A DNA stretch of 64,000 nucleotides from a virus (lineage: Duplodnaviria > Heunggongvirae > Uroviricota > Caudoviricetes). The notes beneath the pieces were generated by a model. It had not been told where the DNA came from and searched no databases. It worked only from the letters and a program-made list of their open reading frames with translations. Positions 1-60,202 of the stretch are shown here, piece after piece (position 1 is the stretch's first letter; every line of letters begins with the position of its first letter). The translations under genes were made by a program, and so were the position numbers. The stretch is taken from IMG/VR virus record IMGVR_UViG_2675903538_000004, one strand, 5' to 3'.

Positions 1-501
1 TGCCGCCCTTACGATGTAATTAAATGCAACGTTGCGAGGGCGAGTTTCTGTACCTACATTTCCACTAATTTCACCATAACGTTTAACACTACGAGAGCTA
101 ATAGCTCGTAGTGAGGAAGGCACCTTATGACCGGGTTCGTCCGTTTTAACTATTCCCCCGTCACCGTATGTAGCTAGTATTCCTGGATTTACGCCTTCCC
201 GTGCACTTCCTGCGGCGAGTCCGTCCCCTGTCCATAATTCCATATAGTGTGCATGGTCAAAAATTGTGTGTGGCTGCCAATTAAGCAAAGCGCGGCCAGC
301 ATCCACCCCGCGCCCATCATCCCAACCGCGAATAAATTCTCCCCGTAAATCCGGTAATTTATTGGTGGGGTAGGCTTTTGCCAGTTTGGGATACATTTCA
401 GAAGAAAATGCTGCACCATTGCATTTCAGCCACCCCGTTGGCGGTGTGGCTGAGGGCCACGGAACAGGTACACCAACGGGCAGCGCCGAGCCTTCCCCCA
501 A
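1..501 (-). CDS. tail-fibre receptor-binding cassette 1 (3' end runs off window start)
   Basis: Hand translation of the minus strand from 501 gives GEGSALPVGVPVPWP..GWLKCNGAAFSSEMYPKLAKAYPTNKLPDLRGEFIRGWDDGRGVD...RPRNVAFNYIVRAA with no stop before position 1; same architecture as cassettes 2-6. Not in ORF track because the stop lies off-window. Confidence 0.55.
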   Translation of the reverse strand, partial: MGEGSALPVGVPVPWPSATPPTGWLKCNGAAFSSEMYPKLAKAYPTNKLPDLRGEFIRGWDDGRGVDAGRALLNWQPHTIFDHAHYMELWTGDGLAAGSAREGVNPGILATYGDGGIVKTDEPGHKVPSSLRAISSRSVKRYGEISGNVGTETRPRNVAFNYIVRAA

Positions 502-518
502 ACCAACGTTTTTATGCC
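493..518. other. invertase crossover site A (hix/cix-like, 26 bp, TTCCCCCAAACC-AA-CGTTTTTATGCC)
   Basis: Resembles Hin-family crossover sites (AAACC-AA-GGTTT core); contains stop codon of cassette 2 and TTG fusion codon of cassette 1. Confidence 0.6.
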
Positions 519-940
519 GCCCTTACGATATAATTAAACGCAATGTTACGAGGACGAATGGTTACATAATTAACCCCATCACCTCGTGAAGGCCCTGCAA
601 ATGAAAAACGGGAAAATCCTGGTTGGTTAGAAACAATTTGGTCATAGTTATTGATTGAATGACCAGACCCAATGTCGAAATTACCTCCGTAATGAGAAAA
701 ACTTGTACCATCCTGCCCTGAAAGCAGGGTACGTCCCGCATCAATCCCGCGCCCATCATCCCAGCCACGGATAAATTCACCGCGTAAATCCGGCAATTTA
801 TTGGTGGGGTAGGCTTTTGCCAGTTTGGGATACATTTCAGAAGAAAATGCTGCACCATTGCATTTTAGCCAGCCAGTTGGTGGTGTTTCTAAGGGCCACG
901 GAACGGGCACACCAACAGGCAGTGCAGAGCCTTCCCCCAA
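512..940 (-). CDS. tail-fibre receptor-binding cassette 2
   Basis: ORF track 142 aa; conserved N-terminal LPVGVPVPWP..GWLKCNGAAFSS..LPDLRGEFIRGWDDGRGID and C-terminal RPRNIAFNYIVRAA (P2 H / Mu S-type tail-fibre C terminus), variable middle; TTG start inside crossover site. Confidence 0.7.
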   Translation of the reverse strand: MGEGSALPVGVPVPWPLETPPTGWLKCNGAAFSSEMYPKLAKAYPTNKLPDLRGEFIRGWDDGRGIDAGRTLLSGQDGTSFSHYGGNFDIGSGHSINNYDQIVSNQPGFSRFSFAGPSRGDGVNYVTIRPRNIAFNYIVRAA

Positions 941-957
941 ACCAACGTTTTTATGTG
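932..957. other. invertase crossover site B
   Basis: TTCCCCCAAACCAACGTTTTTATGTG; same orientation as the other sites. Confidence 0.6.
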
Positions 958-1454
958 GCCCTTACAATGTAATTAAAAGCAACGTTGCGGGGGCGCATTG
1001 ATATCCATGCCCCGGTAAAATTATCCTCTGCCGTCCTTTGAGTGCCTGTTATGGAGTTATCTGATGATGCTGGAACATAATCGCTATTATTTCCTGCTTT
1101 AGGATTAGCAGGGTTTCCAACAGTTATAACAGAATCAGCAGTAGCATAAGCGATACCTACTTTGACATTAGTATTCAGATCGTAACCGTAATAATCCTGC
1201 AAAGCTGTACGAATAAATGTTGCAGTCTGACCACTTAGCAATGAACGCCCTGTATCAATCCCTCTCGAATCATCCCAACCACGGATAAACTCACCGCGTA
1301 AATCAGGTAATTTTAACGTTGGGTAAACCTTTGCCAGATTTGGGTACTTTTCAGAAGAAAATGCTGCTCCGTTACATTTCAGCCACCCCGTTGGCGGTGT
1401 GGCTGAGGGCCACGGAACGGGCACACCAACAGGCAGTGCAGAGCCTTCCCCCAA
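951..1454 (-). CDS. tail-fibre receptor-binding cassette 3
   Basis: ORF track 167 aa; same conserved ends, distinct variable core. Confidence 0.7.
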   Translation of the reverse strand: MGEGSALPVGVPVPWPSATPPTGWLKCNGAAFSSEKYPNLAKVYPTLKLPDLRGEFIRGWDDSRGIDTGRSLLSGQTATFIRTALQDYYGYDLNTNVKVGIAYATADSVITVGNPANPKAGNNSDYVPASSDNSITGTQRTAEDNFTGAWISMRPRNVAFNYIVRAT

Positions 1455-1471
1455 ACCAACGTTTTTATGCC
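1446..1471. other. invertase crossover site C
   Basis: TTCCCCCAAACCAACGTTTTTATGCC. Confidence 0.6.
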
Positions 1472-1932
1472 GCCCTTACGATATAATTAAACGCAATATT
1501 ACGGGGGCGGGTTTCAGATGCTGTACGAACTGAGCGAGAGGCGTCGAATGTCCAGTTATAAGCGCCATAACCCTCAATAATTTCCGTTTCCTTTAGGCCT
1601 GTAGATAATACTTGACCATGTTGACTAAATGGCCCTGAACTAAGTACATCTCTAAAAAGCTGAGTACGCCCGAAAGAACCAACAATATTCTGAATTGCAT
1701 CATTCTGTGCAGATAATAAATTACGGCCAGAGTCAATCCCCCGCCCGTCATCCCAGCCGCGAATAAATTCGCCCCGTAGATCCGGCAATTTATTAGTGGG
1801 GTAAACCTTTGCCAGATTTGGGTACTTTTCAGAAGAAAATGCTGCTCCGTTACATTTTAGCCAGCCCGTTGGTGGTGTTTCTAAGGGCCACGGAACGGGC
1901 ACACCAACAGGCAGTGCAGAGCCTTCCCCCAA
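1465..1932 (-). CDS. tail-fibre receptor-binding cassette 4
   Basis: ORF track 155 aa; same conserved ends, distinct variable core. Confidence 0.7.
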   Translation of the reverse strand: MGEGSALPVGVPVPWPLETPPTGWLKCNGAAFSSEKYPNLAKVYPTNKLPDLRGEFIRGWDDGRGIDSGRNLLSAQNDAIQNIVGSFGRTQLFRDVLSSGPFSQHGQVLSTGLKETEIIEGYGAYNWTFDASRSVRTASETRPRNIAFNYIVRAA

Positions 1933-1949
1933 ACCAACGTTTTTATGCC
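1924..1949. other. invertase crossover site D
   Basis: TTCCCCCAAACCAACGTTTTTATGCC. Confidence 0.6.
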
Positions 1950-2404
1950 GCCCTTACGATATAATTAAAGGCAATATTACGAGGACGGTTTTCATTAGCT
2001 GTTGGCACGACACGAGAGGCGTCGAATCCAAGGTCATCGGTTTTGCCTATATCAGTTGTGTTATTCGGAATTCTCGCAGATCGTGTTCCTGCATCATAAA
2101 AAGCCCCTCTGATTGCATCAAAAGACATGCCAATCCCGCCATCTGCGAACCCCTCAATATTTCTTATTGCATCCCCCTGTGAAGATAATAATTGCCGCCC
2201 GGCATCCACACCACGTCCGTCATCCCAGCCACGGATAAATTCACCGCGTAAATCCGGTAATTTATTGGTGGGGTAGGCTTTTGCCAGTTTGGGATACATT
2301 TCAGAAGAAAATGCTGCACCATTGCATTTTAGCCAGCCAGTTGGTGGTGTTTCTAAGGGCCACGGAACGGGCACACCAACAGGCAGTGCAGAGCCTTCCC
2401 CCAA
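1943..2404 (-). CDS. tail-fibre receptor-binding cassette 5
   Basis: ORF track 153 aa; same conserved ends, distinct variable core. Confidence 0.7.
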   Translation of the reverse strand: MGEGSALPVGVPVPWPLETPPTGWLKCNGAAFSSEMYPKLAKAYPTNKLPDLRGEFIRGWDDGRGVDAGRQLLSSQGDAIRNIEGFADGGIGMSFDAIRGAFYDAGTRSARIPNNTTDIGKTDDLGFDASRVVPTANENRPRNIAFNYIVRAA

Positions 2405-2421
2405 ACCAACGTTTTCATGCT
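2396..2421. other. invertase crossover site E
   Basis: TTCCCCCAAACCAACGTTTTCATGCT. Confidence 0.55.
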
Positions 2422-2921
2422 GCCCTTACGATGTAATTAAACGCAATGTTGCGTGGGCGGTTTTCGTTTGCAGTTGGAACAATTTTTGAAGCATCAAGGC
2501 CAATCACTTTTGGGTAAACAGCGCCGTCTGTCCTTTCTGTCACCATACTTCTGACTAAGGAAAAATAACTATTGTTTGTTGAGGGAGTTAAAGGCACCAC
2601 AGCCCCCTTAAACGAGCCTACTGATTCCCATATTGAATAATTTTCAGTATTTACAGTCTTGAACTCACCATAGATATTACGTATGGCATCACCTTGAGCG
2701 GATAATATTGTTCTCCCCGCATCCACACCACGTCCGTCATCCCAGCCGCGAATAAACTCACCGCGTAAATCCGGCAATTTATTAGTGGGGTAAACCTTTG
2801 CCAGATTTGGGTACTTTTCAGAAGAAAATGCTGCTCCGTTACATTTCAGCCACCCCGTTGGCGGAGTGGCTGAGGGCCACGGAACAGGTACACCAACAGG
2901 CAATGCAGAGCCTTCCCCCAA
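2415..2921 (-). CDS. tail-fibre receptor-binding cassette 6
   Basis: ORF track 168 aa; same conserved ends, distinct variable core. Confidence 0.7.
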   Translation of the reverse strand: MGEGSALPVGVPVPWPSATPPTGWLKCNGAAFSSEKYPNLAKVYPTNKLPDLRGEFIRGWDDGRGVDAGRTILSAQGDAIRNIYGEFKTVNTENYSIWESVGSFKGAVVPLTPSTNNSYFSLVRSMVTERTDGAVYPKVIGLDASKIVPTANENRPRNIAFNYIVRAA

Positions 2922-2938
2922 ACCAACGTTTTAGTCTT
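2913..2938. other. invertase crossover site F (outermost, right half degenerate)
   Basis: TTCCCCCAAACCAACGTTTTAGTCTT; left half and AA core conserved, right half diverged; lies 55 bp from the invertase start. Confidence 0.5.
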
Positions 2939-2992
2939 AATCCCTACCTATACCAACGATGTATTTTTAACTAAACAAAGAGGTTGTTTTTC

Positions 2993-3565
2993 ATGCAAAT
3001 TGGCTACATTCGTGTGTCAACAAATGACCAAAACACAGATTTACAAAGAAATGCACTGAACTGCGCAGGATGTGAACTGATTTTTGAAGATAAAATAAGC
3101 GGAACAAAGTCAGCCAGACCAGGCTTGAAAAAGCTGCTCAGAACCTTATCAGAAGGAGATACGCTGGTTGTCTGGAAGCTGGATAGGCTTGGCAGAAGTA
3201 TGAAACACCTTATCACGCTTATAGAGGAGTTGCGGGAAAAAGGTGTTAATTTCCGTAGTCTGACAGACAGTATTGACACATCAACACCCATGGGGCGTTT
3301 CTTTTTTCATGTCATGGGTGCTTTAGCAGAAATGGAACGTGAATTAATTGTTGAGAGAACACTGGCCGGACTGGCAGCTGCACGCGAACAGGGACGCATT
3401 GGCGGACGTCGCCCGAAGTTGACAAAAGAACAACATGAGCAAATAGCGAGGTTGATCGAAAATGGCTACAGCAGGAAACAGTTGGCAATTATTTACGATA
3501 TCGGTGTATCGACGATTTATCGTTATCATCCTGTAGAGAAGCGCCAAACTCAATCTGAGCTGTAA
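2993..3565 (+). CDS. cin: serine DNA invertase (Cin/Min/Hin/Gin family)
   Basis: MQIGYIRVSTNDQNTDLQ..VVWKLDRLGRSMKHL..GRFFFHVMGALAEMEREL..GRIGGRRPKLT: resolvase catalytic domain plus C-terminal HTH; ATG at 2993 preceded by AAAGAGG (track start 2984 is TTG). Confidence 0.95.
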   Translation: MQIGYIRVSTNDQNTDLQRNALNCAGCELIFEDKISGTKSARPGLKKLLRTLSEGDTLVVWKLDRLGRSMKHLITLIEELREKGVNFRSLTDSIDTSTPMGRFFFHVMGALAEMERELIVERTLAGLAAAREQGRIGGRRPKLTKEQHEQIARLIENGYSRKQLAIIYDIGVSTIYRYHPVEKRQTQSEL

Positions 3566-4000
3566 TTCAAATGCCGCGTCGGTGTAATTTATCTTGATAG
3601 AATAGGTACATTTATCGCGCGGCACATCAATTCGATGTATCTAGCGCCTGCTGGCCGCTAATGAAAACTGTTCTCGAAATGTTGTCCCTAGTCCGAGACT
3701 AGGGTATCACCTCTGGAAAGCATACGCAGAACCTTTTTTAACCCAGGGTGTCCAGCTTTTTTGCTGCTCGCCTTATTCGCAAAAATTAGCTCACATCCTG
3801 CGCTTTCAAGTGCTTTTCACTGCATAGCTGTGTTTTGTTCATTTGTCTATATGCGTACATAGCCTATTAGCATATTTTCTGCCCACTATCGTTATTTATT
3901 GCAAGCTACAGGTTTTAATTAACAAAACCAGTGTGTGTGGAAATCACAAAGTGCATACCGTTCTCAAATGTTGTTCAACTTACTGTTGTATAGGTAAAAA

Positions 4001-4264
4001 ATGACATTTTATGTACATATCGTGATGTTATCCCTTCTTGGTGGGGTGTATTCGTATTTGAGTGGGCTATGTGAAAACCGTTACGAGTCTTCATGCAAGA
4101 AATTGCTGGCCGAATGTATTTCCGCCGTACTTGCTGGCTTTATTGGCATGTATCTCGCGGAATATAAGGACATGAATGAAAGCCTTCAGAGCTGCATGGT
4201 TCTTATTTTCAGCGCCAATAGCAGGCTTATTATTGAAGGTTCCAAAAGTCGGTTGAATAGGTAA
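4001..4264 (+). CDS. small hydrophobic protein, holin-like
   Basis: 87 aa with two hydrophobic segments, upstream of lydA; identity uncertain. Confidence 0.4.
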   Translation: MTFYVHIVMLSLLGGVYSYLSGLCENRYESSCKKLLAECISAVLAGFIGMYLAEYKDMNESLQSCMVLIFSANSRLIIEGSKSRLNR

Positions 4265-4338
4265 GTCTCTTATGCAACATAACCGGTTGAGAAGTTACTT
4301 TGCATACCATTACCTCCTGACAACGTAGGAGGGAACTT

Positions 4339-4668
4339 GTGCTTGACACACAGGAATTAGCTCCAGTTGCTATTGCGCTCCTGCTTTCAGTAATTGGTGG
4401 GATAGGCACGTTCCTGATGGATGTCCGAGACGGTCGCCAGTCTGGCAATTTGTTGGGATTGGTTACGGAGATCTTTGTTGCAGTGACAGCTGGCGCGGTG
4501 GCGTACCTATTGGGGCAACACGAGGGCTGGGAGTTATCAATTACGTACTTAATGGTAACGATAGCCAGCAATAACGGTCATGAGGTGATTTCAGGGATGA
4601 AACGAGTGAATATCGATAGCATTCTGAATGTTCTTACAAGTTTGGTGAAAAAGGGAGGCGGGAAATGA
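4339..4668 (+). CDS. lydA: holin (LydA-like)
   Basis: 109 aa, two TM segments; GTG start after AGGAGGG; position upstream of darA matches P1 (from memory). Confidence 0.65.
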   Translation: MLDTQELAPVAIALLLSVIGGIGTFLMDVRDGRQSGNLLGLVTEIFVAVTAGAVAYLLGQHEGWELSITYLMVTIASNNGHEVISGMKRVNIDSILNVLTSLVKKGGGK

Positions 4669-5698: not shown

Positions 5699-7618
5699 AT
5701 GGAACAGTTCAATATCAATAAAGGGGTGACGATCAAGCCTGGGCTTGACGTGCTTCCCCCGCCAGTGACTGATGATGAATATCGCGCATTAATGGCCGGT
5801 GAGGACCGCTATCTGATGACGGAATCCAACACCCTGGAGGAAATCGAGGCTACGTTCTTCTATGACACGCCGATCCACTGGTGTGCTACGGATTTACTGG
5901 AGGCGATTAGTTCTACTCGTTTGCAGTTACACCGGACCATGCAGGCATTTGTCCGGGCATTGAACCAGAAGCTGAATGGTACCGGAATCTCTGCGGGGAG
6001 TGATAAAACGGGGGATGTGGCCCAGAGCGGCGCGCGCGCGATCGGCGGCGCTGAAATTGGCCGGGCACGTAACGTTAACGGGCTGCCGGTCTTGCCAGCC
6101 ATTATTCCGCTCAGTGATGGTCAGACTATCAGCATTCTGTTTCATAGCCCGACAGCGGAAAACCGGATCACCAATAGCGATACGCTGGTTGCTTTCCAGT
6201 TCTTACTGAATAAAAAAGACGTTACTCACACCGTTGCTCCGATGAGTGGACGTGATATGACGCTGGCGCAGGTCACCATGAAACTTGCCAACCTTGCAGA
6301 GAAAAACTCGGCAAAATTCCAGCGTGCGCAGAAGAAGAAAAAAGCCCTTGTTGATGAAATAACCCAACTACAGGCTGACAGTGACCAGAAAGAGGATGCC
6401 ATGAGCGACCTCGCGGATCAGGTGGCAGCGGTAGAAGGGCAGAAGGCAGATCTGGAGCAGAAAATTAACGCTGTTGCATCGGAAGCGGATTCTCTTTATG
6501 AAGAGAATGAGCGTTTGCAGACGGAGATTGATCAGCTCAATCGCACTGGTGGGCGCGATACCATTGCTCCAGCGGGGATGACTGGTGGGCACTCTCGCGC
6601 GCTGACGGATCGCCTTGCCAGTATCAAAAATCGTATGCATATGGACGGGGAAGTGACGCTCAGTAATGGTGCATCAATGAAGCAATTCATTGGGGGCGGC
6701 GAAGGGTATATCCAGTTAACCGATCCGGATGGCAGCGTATACATGATCAAGGCTAAATCCATACAGGGTGTGGACATGGCAGATGCGATCGGCAAGCTGT
6801 TTAAAGCCTATAAAGCGGGTAATGTATCGGAATACCTGGTCCAACCAGAAGAACATAAACCGGAAAACGTCGAACCTGAACCAGCGGAGGATACCGGTAG
6901 CTCTTCGCCTGAACCAGAAGTCTCTGTAGGTGCATATCGATATGCCCTGCAAATGCGTCCGGCGGCCCCTGGCGCAATACCTGAAGGTAACAAAGCAATT
7001 CTGCCGCGCCCTGATGAAGGTGACCCGTATTATGAATATGCACGCTACGGCATTGCTACTTACGATACCCCGCTTTCTGATCAGCAAATGAGTGAGTACG
7101 ACCTGAAGTTATTGCCTCGCGAGGATTCTTTCGACTTCCTGGCGAAGACACTTACTAATGGTCCGTTTGGCAAATATTCACAAAAAGCTCTGGAGCTGGC
7201 CACCAGCTCACCAGACGAGTTCCGCGTAATGCTGAAAACTCAGTTTCAAAAAACTTTCCCCAATATTGCGTTTCCTGGGGGCGCTGGCACCGAGAAAATG
7301 GTGCAGAGCATGATCAATGCATTGCAGGCCGAAGTCGGTGAGATTCCTCAGCCAGAACCGGCCCCGGCACAGCCTGATGAAACGGTTAGCGAAGCAGATG
7401 CAGAGGCTAATAAAGCCATTGAATATCTCAATAACGTGATGGATATACAAAGCACTGACATGGCGGAGATCCGTAACGCCCGGGGCAATGTCCGGGAAGC
7501 GATTGCAGCCCTTCAGGCTGCCGGACGTTTTGAGGAAAACGAAGAGCTGGTTAACGGCGCAGCTCGCCACCTGGCTGATCTGTTGGTAGCAATCCAGAAA
7601 GCGGGGGTAGCGGCATGA
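5699..7618 (+). CDS. darA: DarA-like antirestriction / head-internal protein
   Basis: 639 aa, same length and operon context as P1 DarA (from memory); start 1 bp after hdf stop. Confidence 0.7.
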   Translation: MEQFNINKGVTIKPGLDVLPPPVTDDEYRALMAGEDRYLMTESNTLEEIEATFFYDTPIHWCATDLLEAISSTRLQLHRTMQAFVRALNQKLNGTGISAGSDKTGDVAQSGARAIGGAEIGRARNVNGLPVLPAIIPLSDGQTISILFHSPTAENRITNSDTLVAFQFLLNKKDVTHTVAPMSGRDMTLAQVTMKLANLAEKNSAKFQRAQKKKKALVDEITQLQADSDQKEDAMSDLADQVAAVEGQKADLEQKINAVASEADSLYEENERLQTEIDQLNRTGGRDTIAPAGMTGGHSRALTDRLASIKNRMHMDGEVTLSNGASMKQFIGGGEGYIQLTDPDGSVYMIKAKSIQGVDMADAIGKLFKAYKAGNVSEYLVQPEEHKPENVEPEPAEDTGSSSPEPEVSVGAYRYALQMRPAAPGAIPEGNKAILPRPDEGDPYYEYARYGIATYDTPLSDQQMSEYDLKLLPREDSFDFLAKTLTNGPFGKYSQKALELATSSPDEFRVMLKTQFQKTFPNIAFPGGAGTEKMVQSMINALQAEVGEIPQPEPAPAQPDETVSEADAEANKAIEYLNNVMDIQSTDMAEIRNARGNVREAIAALQAAGRFEENEELVNGAARHLADLLVAIQKAGVAA

Positions 7619-12096: not shown

Positions 12097-12774
12097 TCAC
12101 TCCACTACAAACCAGTCACATGCCAGTAAGTCGCCTACAGAAGGAACCCACGGAACAACTACACCTTGTGCATTTTTTAAGGCGAAATAAGCACCATACG
12201 GAACGAGGTCGCCGGGGAAATATCCCTTAATGGCTTCCATTCGTGCCGGGTACTGTCCTTCAGGAACCAGCCAGCAGAATTGGTTTTCGCCGTTCCACCC
12301 GCGTCGAGCAACTTTCTTGCCATCCTTCAGCCACATCAGCGCGTCAGAAAAGTCGGCTGCTTCAAGGTCGATTTCTTCTTGTGTGGTAATGATGCCACTG
12401 GCAGCAATAGTTACGTCCCTGGCTGTAATGAATGTCACCCCATTGTGACCTTCAATACTGAGCGATACCCCATTTTCGAAGAAGTCGTTAGTCCGACTAA
12501 AGCCTTCTTCAAATGTTTTTTCTGGTGAATAGGACAGAGATCCGTCCTCATAAGCGACCAGATATCCGCCAATTTCTGGTCGGTGTTTTTGCAAAAACAT
12601 TTTATCAACATGGACTTTTACCCCTTCTGGCTCAACGACTTCGATGTTGCAAAAAAGGACCACATCCATTAGGGCGATAATTTCGATATCTTTGATTTTT
12701 GAGGCGCGAACTGTTTTATGGCTTTTGTATTTTGGAAGTGCCGTCAAAAGCTCTTTCGTTGTCATGTTATTCAT
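12097..12774 (-). CDS. DUF2829 (Tad2-like) C-terminal domain fused to an unknown N-terminal domain
   Basis: C terminus ALMWLKDGKKVARRGWNGENQFCWLVPEG..YFALKNAQGVVVPWVPSVGDLLACDWFVVE fits the DUF2829 pattern; ATG at 12774 (MNNMTTKELL) preceded by GAGGAAAG; track start 12942 probably too long. Confidence 0.6.
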   Translation of the reverse strand: MNNMTTKELLTALPKYKSHKTVRASKIKDIEIIALMDVVLFCNIEVVEPEGVKVHVDKMFLQKHRPEIGGYLVAYEDGSLSYSPEKTFEEGFSRTNDFFENGVSLSIEGHNGVTFITARDVTIAASGIITTQEEIDLEAADFSDALMWLKDGKKVARRGWNGENQFCWLVPEGQYPARMEAIKGYFPGDLVPYGAYFALKNAQGVVVPWVPSVGDLLACDWFVVE

Positions 12775-57972: not shown

Positions 57973-58048
57973 TGGTGGCCCCTACCGGACTTGAACCGGT
58001 GACCGTGCGATTATGAGTCGCCAGCTCTAACCACTGAGCTAAAGGGCC
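57973..58048 (-). tRNA. tRNA with CAU anticodon (Ile2/lysidine-type or Met)
   Basis: 76 nt GGCCCTTTAGCTCAGTGGTTAGAGC..CTCATAA..GGTTCAAGTCC..GGGGCCACCA; cloverleaf folds by hand; resembles E. coli ileX (from memory). Confidence 0.85.
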
Positions 58049-60048: not shown

Positions 60049-60124
60049 TGGTGCCGATTAACGGAATCGAACCGCTGACATCCTGCTTACAAGGCAGGCG
60101 CTCTACCAACTGAGCTAAACCGGC
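60049..60124 (-). tRNA. tRNA-Thr (UGU)
   Basis: 76 nt GCCGGTTTAGCTCAGTTGGTAGAGC..CTTGTAA..GGTTCGATTCC..CGGCACCA. Confidence 0.85.
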
Positions 60125-60126
60125 AT

Positions 60127-60202
60127 TGGCGATGGTGGATGGATTTGAACCATCGACCCGTTGATTAACAGTCAACCGCTCTAACCGCTGAGCTACACCA
60201 TC
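60127..60202 (-). tRNA. tRNA-Asn (GUU)
   Basis: 76 nt GATGGTGTAGCTCAGCGGTTAGAGC..CTGTTAA..GGTTCAAATCC..CACCATCGCCA; separated from tRNA-Thr by 2 nt. Confidence 0.85.

Follow-up and report, generated by a model that had tools for sequence, protein, structure and literature searches.

A tail-fibre tip array in a P1-like plasmid prophage, very probably the invertase-proximal arm of a Min-type multiple-inversion system

This study deals with the left end of a 64,000-nucleotide stretch of tailed-phage DNA (Caudoviricetes, IMG/VR record IMGVR_UViG_2675903538_000004), hereafter called the window. Its positions 1 to 2,938 hold six tail-fibre tip cassettes packed head to tail, each headed by a 26-bp crossover site, and a serine DNA invertase gene adjoins this array. 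On the basis of homology and of comparative architecture, we consider it very probable that the region is the invertase-proximal arm of a multiple-inversion system (shufflon) of the Min type, carried by a p15B/P1-like plasmid prophage, and that each cassette is a promoterless 3' end of the tail-fibre gene S. An earlier note on this DNA, made from the sequence without database searches, had proposed multiple inversion of a p15B Min-like kind. This can be sharpened to the Min locus type proper, the spacing of min, the cin remnant and lydC being the same.

Cassettes, crossover sites and invertase

The features of the region are the following (lengths of proteins in amino acids, aa).

1..501, minus strand: tip cassette E, apparently silent, 167 aa; its stop lies just off the window and contig end
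493..518, plus strand: crossover site TTCCCCCAAACC-AA-CGTTTTTATGCC heading cassette E; the closing codons and stop of cassette F form its right half
512..940, minus strand: tip cassette F, apparently silent, 142 aa, with collar domain
932..957, plus strand: crossover site heading cassette F, …TATGTG variant
951..1454, minus strand: tip cassette C, apparently silent, 167 aa, ending in VRAT
1446..1471, plus strand: crossover site heading cassette C
1465..1932, minus strand: tip cassette I, apparently silent, 155 aa
1924..1949, plus strand: crossover site heading cassette I
1943..2404, minus strand: tip cassette D, apparently silent, 153 aa; same tip in phage SKA5 (89% nucleotide identity)
2396..2421, plus strand: crossover site heading cassette D, …CATGCT variant
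2415..2921, minus strand: tip cassette A, apparently silent, 168 aa; exact protein on at least 24 other contigs, at differing array positions
2913..2938, plus strand: invertase-proximal boundary site TTCCCCCAAACC-AA-CGTTTTAGTCTT; outer half identical in all relatives
2993..3565, plus strand: Min-type serine DNA invertase, 190 aa from ATG, catalytic Ser9; transcribed away from the array
3011..3082, plus strand: putative Fis-dependent recombinational enhancer, 58/72 identical to the annotated P1 cin enhancer
3697..3873, minus strand: decayed 5' remnant of a P1-type cin, with in-frame stops (MLIGYVRI(stop)TNEQNTAMQ(stop)…); present in p15B too according to the notes of the P1 record

Six direct-repeat copies of a unit of about 300 nucleotides were located by a repeat finder at 252–2971, with start-to-start distances of 439–517 bp, and the minus strand carries six open reading frames (ORFs) of 142–168 aa, in agreement with the six head-to-tail units and 140–170 aa modules described earlier. 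The ORF at 1–501 is complete to its last residue, the stop codon alone being lost at the window edge. All six proteins match the phage tail collar family (Pfam PF07484) over residues 10–57, with E values around 1e-14. Pairwise identity is 86–97% over the N-terminal 72 aa, 14–38% in the core and 86–100% over the C-terminal 14 aa. Both cassette ends are conserved, as the earlier note had it, with two corrections: the N-terminal stretch covers about 72 rather than 60 residues, and the near-identical C-terminus has its exceptions, RAT being the ending of one cassette and RPRNVAF being found in two others. The window thus contains six sites with six distinct collar-type ends, that is, more than two.

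As free-standing genes, the cassettes look silent to judge from their sequence, which bears out an earlier proposal. The sole start codon of each frame is a TTG within the crossover site, no Shine-Dalgarno sequence precedes it, and a TAA is found 21 nucleotides upstream. A scan of positions 1–4300 for promoters and terminators gave no excess over shuffled sequence (9 promoter-like matches against 8.1 expected).

The cassettes had also been taken for receptor-binding tips of tail fibres, and their homology to the tip of T4 gp37 supports this. Cassette A matches the gp37 structure (PDB 2XGF) with a whole-sequence E value of 1e-16, in two pieces: residues 5–81 correspond to the start of the crystallised fragment, and residues 152–168 to its extreme C-terminus (ENTVKNIAFNYIVRLA; NIAFNYIVRLA). 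A full-length match was obtained with the short-tail-fibre structure 9cuy (E 6e-25). An AlphaFold2 model of cassette A, built with an alignment of the six window cassettes, was unusable (predicted local distance difference test score, pLDDT, 36.5; predicted template modelling score, pTM, 0.15). In the gp37 structure described by Bartual et al. in 2010, the chain reportedly exits the collar, extends to the receptor-binding head and then turns back, which lets the C-terminus pack into the collar. On this pattern both ends of the protein would build the collar, which would explain why the cassettes have conserved ends and a variable middle; by analogy, the variable core would be the excursion bearing the receptor-binding apex. 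T4 gp37 and the cassettes have in common the N-terminal collar segment and the C-terminal …NIAFNYIVR(L/A)A motif, and differ in the length of the variable excursion, which is much shorter in the window cassettes (about 60–85 aa).

A 26-bp site of the hix/cix type had been reported ahead of each cassette. Six such sites are indeed present, each cassette starts inside one, and they are homologous to P1 cix. The 26-mer as first written occurs three times exactly and twice with 2 mismatches (0 expected by chance), while the core AAACCAACGTTTT has exactly six copies, all on one strand, at 500, 939, 1453, 1931, 2403 and 2920. The sites have a 12-2-12 layout with a central AA, and all six read TTCCCCCAAACC-AA-CGTTTT…; the sixth, beside the invertase, differs in its outer right half (…CGTTTTAGTCTT). 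Because this outer half is constant across relatives, site 2913–2938 is the fixed right end of the invertible region. Compared with the annotated cixL of P1, the window sites agree at 15–17 of 26 positions and share the inner core AAACCAAxGT. Their own dyad symmetry is weak (5 of 12 positions). In the coding sense, the junction between two cassettes reads …GTA AGG GCG GCA TAA AAA CGT TGG TTT GGG GGA AGG C…: the right half-site supplies the closing codons and stop of the preceding cassette (…VRAA and stop), and the left half-site together with the central TT/AA codes for the start of the next one in a different frame (GLGEG…; joint …LGLGEG…). There is therefore no spacer, and site plus cassette form a self-contained module.

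The adjoining gene encodes an intact serine invertase, with Resolvase (PF00239, E 2e-51) and HTH_7 (PF02796, E 3.5e-15) domains and with Ser9 in the motif YIRVST. Its exact sequence belongs to UniRef100 cluster Q05517_ECOLX and is found on at least 1000 contigs. That an invertase adjoins the array had been noticed before. The label "Cin-like" given to it then is loose, as the protein is nearer to Gin, with full-length matches to structures 3UJ3 and 4M6F at E values around 1e-91 (2e-91 for 3UJ3), than to P1 Cin (73% aa identity), and as a decayed remnant of true cin lies next to the gene taken to be the active one. The closest relatives are presumably Pin and Min. The enhancer homologue corresponds to nucleotides 19–90 of the invertase gene. 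Beyond it, window positions 3697–4400 are 83% identical to P1 in inverted orientation, and cover the first 177 nucleotides or so of cin, its promoter region, lydC and lydA; this cin copy is a remnant, since stop codons interrupt its frame.

The invertase side was compared with p15B through landmarks given in the notes of the P1 record and through citing papers. Matches to p15B (X62121) are recorded in P1 at 6463–6533 (enhancer) and 7147–7408 (cin 5' region), 684 bp apart. The same two landmarks are found in the window at 3017 and 3701, also 684 bp apart, and on this side the window is therefore collinear with the published p15B Min locus.

Two further observations concern this flank. The cin remnant, between the invertase and lydC, bears a second enhancer-like sequence. 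Just past the invertase stop, a 28-nucleotide relic at 3657–3684 (plus strand) looks like the 3' terminus of a tip cassette (GCTAATGAAAACTGTTCTCGAAATGTTG, about …ANENxxRN…) and pairs with 1972–1999 as an 86% inverted repeat; it may be a trace of the substitution by which a P1-like genome acquired min.

Permuted arrays in related plasmids

Fourteen related loci (L001–L014) of E. coli, Salmonella and Klebsiella were examined, on complete plasmids or on long contigs. Both arms of the array are visible in nine of them, and the constant fibre gene is reached in six (L001–L005 and L013). In all nine two-arm loci the layout is the same: a number k of same-strand cassettes, a central segment, cassettes on the opposite strand, the fixed site and the invertase. 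The central segment consists of a cassette G, a tail fibre assembly gene tfa (Caudo_TAP) and a convergent cassette H. Where it is reached, the constant gene ends in an inverted site TTCCCCYAAACCAAGGTAATCAAGAA, built TTCCCCYAAACC-AA-GGTAATCAAGAA and identical to P1 cixR at 20 of 26 positions, and the constant part is joined in frame to a cassette (…VLDYLGLGEGSALPVG…). This is the constant gene closed by an inverted site that the earlier note had predicted, and none of the six relatives that reach this flank lacks it.

Site orientation switches only once, at G-tfa-H, in nine of nine two-arm loci. A single switch point survives any inversion between opposed sites, and is therefore expected under the mechanism. 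About ten cassette types recur in 9–13 of the 14 loci, in permuted order and orientation, in arrays of 8–17 cassettes; of the common types, two (B and J) have no copy in the window. The tip fused to the constant gene is of six different types in the six plasmids where it can be seen, and the central segment points one way or the other with respect to the fixed flanks, depending on the locus. One and the same cassette A protein occupies the 1st, 2nd, 3rd, 5th or 7th place from the invertase, or lies on the opposite arm, depending on the contig. Taken together, the variety of fused types, the flips of the central segment and the positions of cassette A point to inversion in nature, as far as sequence comparison can tell. 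The outer half-sites stay put, GGTAATCAAGAA always with the constant gene and CGTTTTAGTCTT always with the invertase, and the internal right half-sites are always the 3' end of the preceding cassette. As G and H are always innermost, N cassettes allow 2(N-1)! arrangements, that is, 240 for N=6.

Of 5,426 complete E. coli genomes, 169 carry the junction between min and the cin remnant (1.1 kb, at least 80% coverage), as do 158 plasmids in PLSDB.

Some loci depart from a simple array. In L001 (NZ_CP135665.1, 1–10203) we counted 17 cassettes, several types being duplicated, and in L014 (NZ_LR882977.1) the invertase-holin region is duplicated, with cassette fragments between the copies. These duplications are either real amplification or misassembly of mixed isomers; the duplicated cassettes of L001 could stem from unequal crossing-over or be an assembly artefact. 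All eight contigs retrieved via cassette A (L004–L010 among them) stop within the array or close to it. Breaks at the Min array locus are systematic in draft assemblies, as repeats or mixed isomers would cause.

No assembly chaperone adjoins any of the six window cassettes, as the earlier note had remarked. The relatives have a single tfa per array, within its invertible centre. The ATG of this tfa and the stop codon of cassette G share bases (TAATG), and the gene changes direction together with the central segment. Since this gene is translationally coupled to G and antisense in half of the isomers, we favour that it serves G alone, or is dispensable for most tips, over service of all tips in trans. 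Some of the same tips are found in other phages, equipped with a chaperone: tip A, at 91% nucleotide identity, in the P2-like Salmonella phage MET_P1_103_31 (L015, 3501–4838), and tip D in Escherichia phage SKA5 (L016, 3501–3962). In both, each tip is followed by its own tfa, with a two-state invertase alongside. The array tfa is 76% and 51% identical to the tfa of MET_P1_103_31 and SKA5, respectively, and the C-terminal half is well conserved.

Inversion, alternative readings and context

If the system works as proposed, the Min invertase would pair two opposed sites in a complex that includes Fis, bound to the enhancer within the invertase gene, strands would be exchanged at the central dinucleotide, and the DNA between the sites would invert. 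Direct repeats, such as those of the window arm alone, are not recombined by Hin-family invertases. Partners for the window sites would be the site that closes the constant part of S and the sites on the S side of the array. A new tip would then join the constant part of S in frame, and the remaining cassettes would be re-sorted. Other mechanisms of diversification were set aside without a dedicated test; the anatomy is explained by the invertase together with the sites and the enhancer homologue.

Several points weigh against a functional Min switch in this particular element. Neither a constant fibre gene, nor an inverted partner site, nor tfa is present within the 64-kb window, in keeping with the earlier remark that no constant fibre part lies upstream of any cassette; the core AAACCAACGTTTT has no further copy there and no inverted copy either. 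A strict Fis-consensus scan gave one clean match, at 3063–3077 in the enhancer homologue, and no two matches spaced by 48 bp, so that the enhancer is called by its homology to that of P1. The completeness of the switch is deduced from relatives, and it is likewise by comparison with other plasmids that the element would be expected to invert today. The cassette order of a short-read draft is perhaps that of one isomer in a mixed population. Lastly, P1-like plasmids that have lost tail genes exist, for example pJIE250-3 (PMC6906374).

The absence of the constant gene has a simple cause, which is that the window begins at a contig end. Its start is position 1 of draft contig LOIS01000045.1 (GCA_001607815.1, 92,187 bp), whose first 12,921 bases are identical to the window, and this position falls inside a crossover site. 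To judge from the relatives, the element probably keeps the constant gene and the central tfa segment past the contig end. Six cassettes on one arm plus G and H would then make at least eight in all, and the tips would presumably change host range.

These points bear on a first alternative, that the array is a frozen relic which has lost its partner site, constant gene or tail morphogenesis genes and no longer switches. The contig end does hide the constant gene, and defective P1-like plasmids without the C-segment or tail genes are known (PMC6906374). We nevertheless regard such a relic as unlikely: the invertase is intact, with the sequence of the common allele, six of six sites are intact, the 92-kb contig has the full size of P1, and repeats or mixed isomers would be expected to make an assembly break inside a crossover site. 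Moreover, the full architecture is kept in every sampled relative whose sequence reaches the constant-gene flank. A reading of the six ORFs as small genes in their own right, each giving a separate tail-collar protein instead of being a silent 3' end, draws on the fact that every ORF is complete with a possible TTG start, and that PGAP (Prokaryotic Genome Annotation Pipeline) and other gene callers return separate coding sequences, labelled "phage tail protein" in RefSeq. It is hardly credible, however, given that the only start is inside the site, downstream of an in-frame TAA and devoid of a Shine-Dalgarno sequence, that promoter-like matches stay at the level of shuffled sequence, that the fold indicated by homology is that of the C-terminal tip of a trimeric fibre, and that in relatives the same sequences are in-frame extensions of a constant part about 650 aa long.

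A third possibility is that the cassettes are shuffled chiefly through RecA-dependent homologous recombination between the 5' segments, of about 200 bp, of opposed cassettes, and not by the invertase at the sites. These segments are 86–97% identical, L001 has duplicated cassettes, and across plasmids one and the same variable core is found behind different 5' variants (SA or LE at residues 17–18; K-N-V or M-K-A at three later positions), which is the mark of exchange within the conserved segment. As the main driver, this route is very unlikely. It would leave unexplained why the outer half-sites GGTAATCAAGAA and CGTTTTAGTCTT are so strictly tied to the constant gene and the invertase, why the sites, homologous to cix, are conserved far beyond coding need, and why an intact invertase with its putative enhancer is maintained; in addition, Min-mediated inversion of p15B is cited in PMC2481393 and PMC6109161 as experimentally shown (Sandmeier 1990). 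The 5' mosaicism nonetheless implies that homologous exchange or gene conversion also acts in the conserved segment of about 200 bp, probably as a slower second layer of variation on top of Min inversion. We also asked whether half-site variants travel strictly with cassette type, as crossover at the central AA would have it. The outcome was not clean across plasmids, because the whole conserved 5' segment is mosaic.

A broader scenario can be put forward tentatively, and we hold it to be possible rather than probable. The p15B lineage may have expanded a six-tip switch into a larger, evolving library of about ten types, with 8–17 cassettes per plasmid, whose tips came from P2-like and Mu-like prophages and were stripped of their chaperones, with one tfa, conserved in its C-terminal half, either acting on all of them in trans or on G only, the remaining tips then folding unaided, and with 5' exchange adding shuffling and transfer between plasmids. 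If this were true, a plasmid with at least eight cassettes would have at least 10,000 possible isomers.

P1-like phage-plasmids are vehicles by which resistance genes pass between Enterobacteriaceae, and the fibre tip determines which hosts they can infect. The expanded Min library is present in hundreds of sequenced plasmids, and a single lysogen could release particles of eight or more specificities. For annotation, the "phage tail protein" genes of such records would be silent gene ends, which makes their description as separate genes unwarranted, and assemblies should be expected to be routinely broken or misordered at the Min array locus. Short, modular tips with fixed joints and no chaperone would also lend themselves well to the retargeting of P1-based delivery particles.

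Downstream of the array, the window has a P1-like backbone, with genes of the DarA, DdrB, LydB and holin families. Near ddrB, the product of 12097–12774 (minus strand; 148–825 in L007) matches Pfam PF11195 (Tad2-like), and this gene is a possible anti-defence gene, as far as the domain match goes. Three tRNA genes, for Met (CAT), Thr (TGT) and Asn (GTT), lie on the minus strand at 57973–58048 and 60049–60202; phage P1 carries a similar small tRNA set.

Comparison with known systems

P1 Cin and Mu Gin share with the window element a serine invertase, homologous 26-bp sites with central AA and the switching of the C-terminal part of S; the enhancer in the 5' part of the invertase gene has its putative counterpart in the window. 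They have two sites and two ends of about 500 aa, each with its dedicated chaperone (U, U'), whereas the window and its relatives have many short gp37-like collar ends of 142–168 aa and, in the relatives, one tfa per array. The window invertase is also in the orientation opposite to that of cin in P1. The two-state switches of the Hin/Pin type, in P2-like and Mu/e14-like prophages, have the same tips A and D and a related invertase alongside; there, each tip has its own tfa behind it, whereas the tips of the Min arrays are stripped of tfa and packed stop-to-site.

The R64 shufflon (Rci) and the bifidobacterial phage Rin shufflon are alike in that overlapping invertible segments swap the C-terminus of an adhesin or receptor-binding protein, and in that the cassettes lie between the constant gene and the recombinase (PMC6109161). 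They differ by their tyrosine recombinases and short asymmetric sites, whereas the window has a serine invertase, hix-type dyad sites and a putative enhancer.

The closest likeness is with p15B. Both have a P1-like backbone, the order invertible fibre region, min, cin remnant, lydC, lydA, an invertase facing away from the array, and multiple sites, each heading an alternative 3' end of S. The difference is one of size: p15B, as Sandmeier et al. reportedly described it in 1990 and 1992, has six sites in about 3.5 kb, whereas the window element has six cassettes on one arm alone, probably at least eight in all, and its relatives have 8–17. For p15B, 240 isomers are quoted (PMC2481393), a figure equal to 2(N-1)! 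at N=6, and its Min shufflon is cited as the coliphage paradigm of multiple inversion (PMC6109161, PMC2481393). The principle of the p15B Min system, established in 1990–92, is unchanged by the present findings, and the window is a member of that family. No paper on expanded arrays, or on the other points added here, was found in the literature searched, which is no proof of absence. The classic account is exceeded in array size, in the recurring pool of about ten tips, in the sharing of tips with P2-like and Mu-like phages, and in the mosaicism of the 5' segments.

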